Source of the DNA: Enterobacteria phage MED1
DNA length: 5,386 nucleotides
Reading direction: 5' to 3' (one strand)
Sequence record: KJ997912.1
The notes under the pieces were generated by a model, which made no database searches, was not told where the DNA came from, and worked only from the letters and a program-made list of their open reading frames with translations. Within the stretch, counting starts at the first letter, position 1, and every line of letters begins with the position of its first letter. This document shows positions 1 through 5,386 of the stretch, piece after piece. The position numbers and the translations under genes were made by a program.

Positions 1-51
1 GAGTTTTATCGCTTCCATGACGCAGAAGTTAACACTTTCGGATATTTCTGA
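1..51 (+). CDS. B: Internal scaffolding protein B, C-terminal 16 codons plus stop (continuation of 5075..5386 across the circular junction); stop TGA 49-51
   Basis: Translation of 1-51 in frame 1 gives [16 protein letters not shown], the conserved phiX174 B C-terminus; the stop overlaps the K start (TGATG at 49-53). Confidence 0.85.
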
Positions 52-136
52 TGAGTCGAAAAATTATCTTGATAAAGCAGGAATTACTACTGCTTGTTTA
101 CGAATTAAATCGAAGTGGACTGCTGGCGGAAAATGA
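1..136 (+). CDS. A: Replication initiator protein A (and A*), C-terminal segment; continuation across the circular junction of the ORF that runs off the window end at 5386 (position 1 is the third base of the junction codon CAG); stop TGA at 134-136
   Basis: Frame continuous with the 3981..5386 ORF when the ends are joined; translation ...[46 protein letters not shown] matches the phiX174 A C-terminus as I recall it; the stop overlaps the gene C start (ATGA at 133-136). Confidence 0.85.
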
Positions 137-221
137 GAAAATTCGACCTATCCTTGCGCAGCTCGAGAAGCTCTTACTTTGCGACCTTTCGCCATCAACT
201 AACGATTCTGTCAAAAACTGA
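51..221 (+). CDS. K: Protein K (56 aa, small nonessential membrane protein), overlapping the end of A and the start of C
   Basis: ATG 51-53 to TGA 219-221; translation [56 protein letters not shown] matches phiX174 K as recalled. Absent from the ORF track, presumably because it is below the length cutoff. Confidence 0.85.
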
Positions 222-3980: not shown

Positions 3981-5386
3981 ATGGTTCGTTCGTATTACCC
4001 TTCTGAATGTCACGCTGATTATTTTGACTTTGAGCGTATCGAGGCTCTTAAACCTGCTATCGAGGCCTGTGGCATTTCTACTCTTTCCCAATCTCCGATG
4101 CTTGCCTTCCATAAGCAGATGGATAACCGCATCAAGCTCCTTGAAGAGATTTTGTCATTTCGTATGCAGGGCGTTGAGTTCGATAATGGTGATATGTATG
4201 TCGACGGTCATAAGGCTGCTTCTGATGTTCGTGATGAGTTTGTGTCTGTTACTGAAAAGTTAATGGATGAATTGGCACAATGTTACAACGTGCTCCCCCA
4301 ACTTGATATTAATAACACTATAGACCACCGCCCCGAAGGGGACGAAAAATGGTTTTTAGAGAACGAGAAGACGGTTACGCAGTTTTGCCGTAAGCTGGCT
4401 GCTGAACGCCCTCTTAAGGATATTCGAGATGAGTATAATTACCCCAAAAAGAAAGGTATTAAGGATGAGTGTTCAAGATTGTTGGAGGCCTCCACTATGA
4501 AATCGCGTAGAGGCTTTACTATTCAACGTTTGATGAATGCAATGCGTCAGGCTCACGCTGATGGCTGGTTTATCGTTTTTGACACTCTTACGCTGGCTGA
4601 TGACCGCTTAGAGGCGTTTTATGATAATCCCAATGCTTTGCGTGACTATTTTCGTGATATTGGTCGTATGGTTCTTGCTGCCGAGGGTCGTAAAGCTAAT
4701 GACTCACACGCCGACTGCTATCAGTATTTTTGTGTGCCTGAGTATGGTTCAGCTAATGGCCGTCTTCATTTCCATGCGGTGCATTTTATGCGGACACTTC
4801 CTACAGGTAGCGTTGACCCTAATTTTGGTCGTCGGGTACGCAATCGCCGCCAGTTAAATAGCTTGCAAAACACGTGGCCTTATGGTTACAGTATGCCTAT
4901 CGCAGTTCGCTACACGCAGGACGCTTTTTCACGTTCTGGATGGTTGTGGCCTGTTGATGCTAAAGGTGAGCCGCTTAAAGCTACCAGTTACATGGCTGTT
5001 GGCTTCTATGTGGCTAAATACGTTAACAAAAAGTCAGATATGGACCTTGCCGCTAAAGGTCTAGGAGCTAAAGAATGGAACAACTCACTAAAAACCAAGC
5101 TGTCGCTACTTCCCAAGAAATTATTCAGAATCCGAATGAGCCGCAACTTCGGGATGAAAATGCTCACAATGACCAACCTGTCAATGGAATGCTTAATCCA
5201 GCTTACCAAGCTGGGTTACGACGCGACGCCGTTCAACCAGATATTGAAGCAGAACGCAAAAAGAGAGATGAGATTGAGGCTGGCAAAAGTTACTGTAGCC
5301 GACGTTTTGGCGGCGCAACCTGTGACGACAAATCTGCTCAAATTTATGCGCGCTTCGATAAAAATGATTGGCGTGTCCAACCTGCA
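3981..5386 (+). CDS. A: Replication initiator protein A (HUH rolling-circle endonuclease; 513 aa in total), N-terminal about 468 codons; the ORF runs off the window end and finishes at 1..136
   Basis: ATG 3981 preceded by GGAGG; no in-frame stop to position 5386; HUH motif HFHAVH encoded at 4767-4784; catalytic tyrosine pair in VGFYVAKYVNKK (Tyr codons 5007-5009 and 5019-5021, residues 343 and 347). Confidence 0.95.
   Translation, partial: MVRSYYPSECHADYFDFERIEALKPAIEACGISTLSQSPMLAFHKQMDNRIKLLEEILSFRMQGVEFDNGDMYVDGHKAASDVRDEFVSVTEKLMDELAQCYNVLPQLDINNTIDHRPEGDEKWFLENEKTVTQFCRKLAAERPLKDIRDEYNYPKKKGIKDECSRLLEASTMKSRRGFTIQRLMNAMRQAHADGWFIVFDTLTLADDRLEAFYDNPNALRDYFRDIGRMVLAAEGRKANDSHADCYQYFCVPEYGSANGRLHFHAVHFMRTLPTGSVDPNFGRRVRNRRQLNSLQNTWPYGYSMPIAVRYTQDAFSRSGWLWPVDAKGEPLKATSYMAVGFYVAKYVNKKSDMDLAAKGLGAKEWNNSLKTKLSLLPKKLFRIRMSRNFGMKMLTMTNLSMECLIQLTKLGYDATPFNQILKQNAKREMRLRLAKVTVADVLAAQPVTTNLLKFMRASIKMIGVSNL
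4299..4328 (+). other. Viral-strand origin of replication (30-nt A-protein recognition sequence); nick site between G4305 and A4306
   Basis: CAACTTGATATTAATAACACTATAGACCAC at 4299-4328 is the canonical phiX174 ori, located inside gene A at the same coordinates as in the reference. Confidence 0.85.
4497..5386 (+). CDS. A*: A* protein (341 aa in total): internal in-frame translation initiation within gene A; continues to 1..136
   Basis: In-frame ATG at 4497 preceded by GGAGG at 4484-4488 (8-nt spacing); corresponds to the known A* start of phiX174 (MKSRRGF...). Confidence 0.75.
   Translation, partial: MKSRRGFTIQRLMNAMRQAHADGWFIVFDTLTLADDRLEAFYDNPNALRDYFRDIGRMVLAAEGRKANDSHADCYQYFCVPEYGSANGRLHFHAVHFMRTLPTGSVDPNFGRRVRNRRQLNSLQNTWPYGYSMPIAVRYTQDAFSRSGWLWPVDAKGEPLKATSYMAVGFYVAKYVNKKSDMDLAAKGLGAKEWNNSLKTKLSLLPKKLFRIRMSRNFGMKMLTMTNLSMECLIQLTKLGYDATPFNQILKQNAKREMRLRLAKVTVADVLAAQPVTTNLLKFMRASIKMIGVSNL
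4850..4900 (+). promoter_or_regulatory. Approximate location of promoter pB (inside gene A, upstream of B)
   Basis: Weak sigma70-like elements only (TTGCAA at 4863-4868, then TTACAG/TACAGT around 4886-4892); placed mainly from knowledge that pB lies about 190 nt upstream of B in phiX174. Exact hexamers uncertain. Confidence 0.3.
5075..5386 (+). CDS. B: Internal scaffolding protein B (120 aa in total), embedded in gene A in a different frame; continues at 1..51
   Basis: ATG 5075 with AGGAG at 5063-5067; translation MEQLTKNQAVATSQE... with the conserved C-terminus after the wrap; the N-terminal third carries several substitutions versus the reference as recalled. Confidence 0.9.
   Translation, partial: MEQLTKNQAVATSQEIIQNPNEPQLRDENAHNDQPVNGMLNPAYQAGLRRDAVQPDIEAERKKRDEIEAGKSYCSRRFGGATCDDKSAQIYARFDKNDWRVQPA

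Follow-up and report, generated by a model that had tools for sequence, protein, structure and literature searches.

Changes in the scaffolding protein B of Enterobacteria phage MED1 concentrate in its N-terminal third and fall mostly on silent sites of the overlapping gene A

Introduction

Gene B of Enterobacteria phage MED1 (sequence record KJ997912.1), whose product is the internal scaffolding protein, is nested in the 3' part of the replication initiator gene A. The question raised by this locus is how the N-terminus of B could diverge while the overlapping A frame and the C-terminus of B, which use the same stretch of nucleotides, remained conserved. The stretch of DNA that was analyzed, called the window here, comprises 5386 nt, numbered as is standard for phiX174, and makes up the complete genome of a phiX174-like microvirus. 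An initial annotation of the window had described this pattern from the sequence alone and had suggested that changes were tolerated where they fell on wobble positions of A. Here, the deposited phiX174 reference NC_001422 was used for the comparison. The observation was confirmed and its interpretation supported, so that the initial annotation was essentially correct. The N-terminal third of B is very probably weakly constrained and absorbs mutations that are silent in A, with the coat-binding C-terminal part of B under strong purifying selection.

Substitutions in the A/B overlap

MED1 and NC_001422, which is also 5386 nt long, were aligned without gaps and proved co-linear, with 215 differences (96.0% identity). 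All 11 phiX174 open reading frames (ORFs) were intact in MED1 at the NC_001422 coordinates, which places MED1 among the phiX174-like (Sinsheimervirus) genomes. Gene B starts with the ATG at 5075, and its codons 1–104 occupy 5075–5386 on the plus strand, the same coordinates as the annotated B coding sequence (CDS) of NC_001422 and ID34. The gene continues beyond the last base of this circular record, so that codons 105–120 and the TGA stop are found at 1–51 (plus strand); the junction was read directly. The span 5075–5386 given by the initial annotation was therefore right for codons 1–104 and missed the last 16 codons and the stop. The translation of 5075–5386 followed by 1–51, MEQLTKNQAVATSQEIIQNPNEPQLRDENAHNDQPVNGMLNPAYQ...GYF, reproduced exactly the B sequence that had been written there. 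Moreover, residues 13–120 matched the Pfam profile PF02304 Phage_B with 167 bits (cutoff 27, E=2.8e-49).

Compared with phiX174 B, nine residues differed, namely, A16I, V17I, Q20P, K34Q, S35P, H37N, V39M, T43A, and I101V. Eight of them lie in the 45 N-terminal residues and one in the remaining 75 (Fisher p=0.0016), and the nucleotide substitutions were distributed in the same way, with 10 in 135 nt and 2 in 228 nt (p=0.0012). In the per-site comparison, 10 of the 12 substitutions fell in a variable island at 5120–5201 (plus strand), covering B residues 16–43. The conserved part, codons 46–104 at 5210–5386 (plus strand) and on to codon 120 at 1–48, carried the other two, and positions 1–51 showed no difference from phiX174. 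Thus, the proposed divergence of the B N-terminus holds against the deposited sequence, with eight changes where identity to the reference might have been seen. The proposed conservation of the C-terminus holds for residues 44–100 and 102–120, which are identical to phiX174, and needs to be qualified by the one conservative change I101V.

In the overlapped part of A (residues 365–486), only T402M and G435A were found. Consequently, A is largely conserved, as had been stated, but with 2 of 122 residues changed it is not strictly unchanged. Over the whole overlap, 9 of 120 B residues were changed versus these 2 of 122 in A (p=0.033), and over the N-terminal span the ratio was 8/45 in B versus 1/46 in A (p=0.015); an equal amount of nonsynonymous change in A was not seen. 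Within the island, nine of the 10 substitutions were silent in A, the exception being C>T at 5185 (A T402M), which is silent in B. In the conserved part, the substitution at 5284 produces A G435A and is silent in B, and that at 5375 produces B I101V and is silent in A.

The A402 site (5185) was also compared in a panel of 14 Sinsheimervirus genomes, consisting of MED1 and 13 comparison genomes. Thr was present in the phiX174 reference only, while Met was present in all 13 other panel genomes, MED1 included. The A402 "change" is thus a peculiarity of the phiX174 reference strain.

Frame geometry and classes of substitution

As B is read in the +2 frame of A ((5075−3981) = 1094, mod 3 = 2), B codon position 1 coincides with A position 3, B position 2 with A position 1, and B position 3 with A position 2. 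Every possible single-base change in the overlap was enumerated in this register: 57% were missense in both frames, 22% were silent in A only, and 21% were silent in B only. Doubly silent changes amounted to 2 of 1071 possible (0.2%). With almost no doubly silent sites, B has to take up each change that is silent in A.

The 12 substitutions observed in B comprised 10 that were silent in A and missense in B and two for which the reverse held; no substitution was missense in both. The A-silent share of 10/12 compared with the 22% expected gave a binomial p=1.3e-5, and p=7e-4 when only transitions were considered. Eight of the 10 A-silent substitutions lie at A wobble positions, and the other two at synonymous first positions of A (Leu CTG>TTA and Arg AGA>CGA). 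The two A-missense substitutions occupy the second position of their A codons and thereby the third position of B codons. The suggested tolerance of changes at A wobble positions was thus correct, with the two synonymous first-position changes as a small refinement.

Polymorphism within the genus

Of the A-wobble sites under B codons 10–45, 14/36 (39%) were polymorphic in the panel, compared with 25% of wobble sites in A outside any overlap and 32% in all single-coding genes. Under B codons 46–120, polymorphism fell to 3/75 (4%), approximately eight-fold below the baseline (p=5.6e-6 vs A alone). The protein positions behaved correspondingly. Variable B positions numbered 17 of 45 in the N-terminal part versus 4 of 75 in the rest (p=1e-5), while A varied to a similar extent in both parts (4/46 vs 5/76, p=0.73). 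Over the overlap as a whole, 21 of 120 B positions were variable versus 9 of 122 A positions (p=0.019). Over the common nucleotides, B therefore gained significantly more amino-acid changes than A, as the asymmetric model of overlapping genes describes.

Some versions of the asymmetric model imply positive selection on the fast frame. Positive selection was not detected on B codons 10–45 in a crude, not tree-based, comparison of their 39% with the genome-wide 32% (p=0.47). As judged from these rates, B codons 10–45 fit relaxed constraint, not acceleration.

One further site in the panel was recorded. At B99 (5369–5371), ID1, NC56, and ID22 have Arg for Trp, a non-conservative replacement inside the otherwise frozen C-terminal part; MED1 has Trp.

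Comparison across genera

The same division of B was seen at genus distance. Residues 1–45 of MED1 B were 44% identical to those of a G4-like phage, 17% to ID21, and 14% to alpha3, and for residues 46–120 the corresponding values were 65%, 40%, and 40%. Cross-genus A-wobble identity was 0.74 and 0.59 under the C-terminal part of B versus 0.52 and 0.42 in A alone, and under the N-terminal part it was 0.30 vs the alpha3-like genome. The C-terminal aromatic motif AEFYRF...GYF is identical in MED1 and phiX174, is conserved in NC13, ID21, and alpha3, and matches chain B of PDB entries 1AL0, 1CD3, and 1M0F. The G4-like and alpha3-like genomes also share the +2 offset of B in A.

An IMG/VR scan for further B-encoding loci returned two, one with a B identical to that of the phiX174 reference and one with an alpha3-like B.

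Structure of B and proposed explanation

The N-terminal 45 residues of B consist to 56% of Q, N, P, S, T, and E and include one aromatic residue, and the last 24 residues include seven aromatics. In the procapsid structures of Dokland et al. from 1997 and 1999, the C-terminal tail of B reportedly contacts coat protein F; coat binding by the C-terminus is adopted here as established knowledge. B (gpB) is contained as chain B in PDB entries 1AL0 and 1CD3, while chain B of 1M0F holds B residues 59–120 only. In phiX174, procapsid assembly depends on B, which binds to pentamers of coat protein F (review PMC3185693). From the 92.5% identity of the two proteins, MED1 B would bind F and act in procapsid assembly likewise.

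A complete-mutagenesis preprint on phiX174 (doi 10.64898/2026.07.25.740675, hereafter the mutagenesis preprint) lists the B N-terminus as absent from resolved structures. In the same preprint, 31.9% of the A-silent B missense variants were detrimental, the lowest share among the structural proteins. In a single-sequence AlphaFold2 model of B, residues ~1–50 had predicted local distance difference test (pLDDT) values under 50 and lacked secondary structure, and helices began at residue 57. B is thus most likely weakly constrained, and probably disordered, over its first ~45 residues.

On this basis, the pattern would arise as follows. Gene A would be kept nearly unchanged by selection along the whole overlap, and A-silent mutations would accumulate only where B tolerates the resulting residue change. 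Residues 1 to ~45 of B, among which Q, N, P, and E abound, would accept almost any such change and drift at the genome synonymous rate. Residues ~46–120, including the aromatic tail that binds the inside of coat F, would be under strong purifying selection, and consequently the A wobble positions would be frozen there. Directly observed are the pattern of substitutions, the geometry of the frames, the rates in the panel and across genera, and the sharing of the allele; N-terminal disorder and tolerance, like coat binding by the C-terminus, are inferred or belong to established knowledge.

Several points weigh against this explanation. The AlphaFold2 model was made without an alignment and is poor overall, with a mean pLDDT of 57, so it supports disorder only weakly. 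The tolerance of the B N-terminus is something we infer from comparative rates. The panel genomes are related and recombining, and Fisher tests on their polymorphic sites accordingly overstate independence. Finally, the frozen block runs past B into the A/K overlap (52–136), where none of 29 A-wobble sites was polymorphic in the panel, and the 3' end of B may owe some of its conservation to something other than the B protein.

Sharing of the B allele

The 120-residue MED1 B protein was identical to gpB of ID34 (AAZ49084.1, DQ079882) and to the product of a B ORF that Salmonella phage PJNS001 (PQ479934) carries without annotation. At the nucleotide level, 5075–5386 was 100% identical to PJNS001 and 99.7% to ID34 and NC11, and an identical run of 674 nt from 5051 to 339 was shared with PJNS001. 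MED1 was roughly equidistant from each natural Sinsheimervirus isolate compared (95.0–96.6% identity), with PJNS001 the nearest overall, and no deposited phage matched MED1 overall above 96.6%. In ID34 and PJNS001, B has the same gene coordinates and the same nesting in A as in MED1, but their remaining genomes are only 96.4–96.6% identical; MED1 is thus a different mosaic genome with the same B allele.

Between MED1 and PJNS001, 16 differences were counted in 4037–4163 and only 10 over the ~1.5 kb from about 4164 to 339. The B allele therefore sits in a block of ancestry shared with PJNS001, with a likely recombination breakpoint inside gene A at about 4037–4295. Several N-terminal haplotypes of B occur naturally, and the MED1 allele is one of them.

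The GenBank record of PJNS001 (PQ479934) was found to annotate seven CDS; B, K, E, and A* are unannotated, although the B ORF is intact.

Alternative explanations

As the frozen block does not end at the B stop, the conservation of 5210–51 might stem not from the B protein but from a nucleotide-level constraint, such as a DNA or RNA element with a regulatory or structural role or K or C translation signals, or from a recent recombinational sweep that made about 5200 to 260 uniform in the clade. The probability that 0/29 A-wobble sites in the A/K overlap would be polymorphic by chance is about 1e-5 to 2e-4. In the mutagenesis preprint, nonsense mutations in K left the phage viable in the laboratory and none of the K missense variants was defective, yet the A/K overlap is frozen; MED1 and phiX174 show no difference over 1–221, and the visibly mosaic genomes would fit a sweep. 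However, a recent within-genus sweep cannot explain the raised wobble conservation under the C-terminal part of B across genera. At genus distance, the nucleotides are much changed while the B motif AEFYRF..D....GYF is kept as protein, and the conserved segment matches the stretch of B that has been modelled in procapsid structures. Moreover, the boundary of the frozen zone lies inside gene B, at about codon 45, and at no known signal. The protein-level conservation of the tail at genus distance thus argues that B would be the main cause of C-terminal conservation within its own coding range, and an origin of this conservation outside the B protein is considered unlikely.

A narrower form of this explanation, in which the C-terminal conservation is a recent phiX174-specific recombinant patch, was rejected. 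The segment was near-invariant in the 13 comparison genomes and constrained across genera, and since the constraint persists across genera, a recent sweep is ruled out.

Diversifying or co-adaptive selection on the B N-terminus, with haplotype classes matched to alleles of partner proteins (coat F, spike H, and external scaffold D) or to hosts, is likewise unlikely. The 5001–5200 bin does split the panel into MED1-like genomes (ID34, PJNS001, NC11, NC1, and WA4) and phiX174-like genomes, and B positions 17, 20, and 34 have three states each. Many intermediate N-terminal haplotypes (NC1, WA4, WA10, and ID1) exist, however, and two discrete classes of B are not formed. The 39% polymorphism under B codons 10–45 is nominally higher than the genome-wide wobble value and higher than the 16% of the upstream flank (p=0.016), but its excess over the genome-wide synonymous rate was not significant, as given above. 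The MED1-like B allele is present in the Salmonella phages PJNS001 and SP14; the same allele in the coliphages ID34 and NC11 speaks against host matching. Furthermore, at genus distance the B N-terminus is near random (14–17% identity, wobble identity 0.30), as relaxed constraint predicts, and in the mutagenesis study no other structural protein was as tolerant of mutation as B, which is also against diversifying selection. A more specific proposal sees in the N-terminal third of B a module that matches partners or hosts, with MED1/ID34/PJNS001 and phiX174/S13 haplotypes that are maintained by selection and exchanged between genomes through recombination along with the 3' portion of gene A; it is very improbable.

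An artefact of sequencing or assembly, or an incorrect reference in the initial annotation, can practically be dismissed: the initial annotation was made without a deposited reference, but all differences were reproduced against the deposited reference, the 11 ORFs are intact, and the independent isolates PJNS001, ID34, and NC11 carry the same 312 nt at the identities given above, which excludes a sequencing artefact.

Gene layout and neighboring overlaps

Gene A occupies 3981–5386 on the plus strand and continues to 1–136, with coordinates as in NC_001422 and with B contained in its +2 frame. Its ORF is intact in MED1, encodes 513 amino acids, and differs from phiX174 at five of them; A* starts at 4497 in the same frame. 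The 3' end of A and A* (A codons 469–513 and the stop, 1–136, plus strand) overlaps first the end of B (1–51) and then K (51–136). In the ORF list, gene K extends over 51–221 (plus strand), with the final base of the B stop codon as its first, so that B stop and K start overlap in TGATG at 49–53; K has no nucleotide difference from phiX174 and is part of the same block of low diversity.

In the A/K overlap (52–136, to about 221), cross-genus wobble identity was raised as well (0.74 vs 0.52). The frozen A/K overlap is not explained by B, and a function of K in nature, C translation signals, or another nucleotide-level constraint could account for it.

Upstream of the B start, AGGAG was read directly at 5063–5067 (plus strand), 7 nt before the ATG, and is a putative ribosome-binding site of B by its match to the consensus. 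The part of A upstream of B (4851–5074) showed an A-wobble polymorphism of 16% vs 28% in the remaining non-overlapped A (p=0.05). The pB promoter, with transcription starting at about 4899, and the ribosome-binding site of B lie in this segment, and at pB the mutagenesis preprint reports A mutations that were both synonymous and detrimental.

In the D/E overlap (568–843), where E position 2 coincides with D position 3, all 12 substitutions compared with phiX174 were silent in D, and nine of them change E. The changes in E lie mostly in residues 43–89, outside its N-terminal transmembrane part.

Relation to known systems and significance

A close known relative of MED1 B is phiX174 B (NP_040705; 1AL0 and 1CD3, chain B; PF02304), which has the same length, the same +2 position in A, and 92.5% identity to MED1 B. 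The two proteins are separated by the nine substitutions listed above, and the C-terminal coat-binding tail is identical.

The B proteins of phiX174, G4, and alpha3 cross-complement despite highly diverged N-terminal parts. N-terminal deletions of B can be compensated, and phiX174 can evolve to dispense with B. Experimental work on the function and dispensability of the B N-terminus includes that of Burch, Ta and Fane in 1999, Novak and Fane in 2004, and Chen, Uchiyama and Fane in 2007. These Fane-laboratory studies concern comparisons between genera or engineered deletions, while MED1 B is a natural allele; both agree with weak constraint on the N-terminus.

According to the review PMC8227390, the Microviridae overlaps had been analyzed as early as 1978 (Miyata & Yasunaga) and 1979 (Fiddes & Godson, J Mol Biol 133:19). 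Asymmetric evolution of the overlapping Microviridae genes was described by Pavesi 2006 (J Gen Virol 87:1013), as summarised in PMC2817424. In this asymmetry, the nested gene (B or E) takes the missense changes and the containing gene (A or D) the silent ones, and MED1 behaves in the same way, with ratios of 10:2 for A/B and 12:0 for D/E.

Both the asymmetry as a phenomenon and the exact B allele, which is in GenBank, were already known, and the finding is an ordinary, textbook case; the biology had been established earlier by comparative work and by the genetics of the Fane laboratory. What is added here for the Sinsheimervirus clade is the split within one gene, with B codons 10–45 at the neutral rate and codons 46–120 frozen. 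The locus can be used to teach, to calibrate overlap-aware selection tests, and to pick sites that are safe to recode in synthetic phiX174 designs, and has little importance beyond that of a clean worked example of how an overlapping frame partitions constraint within one gene. Where B is dispensable in detail, the silent sites of A evolve freely and B pays for it; where B binds the coat, they are frozen about eight-fold.

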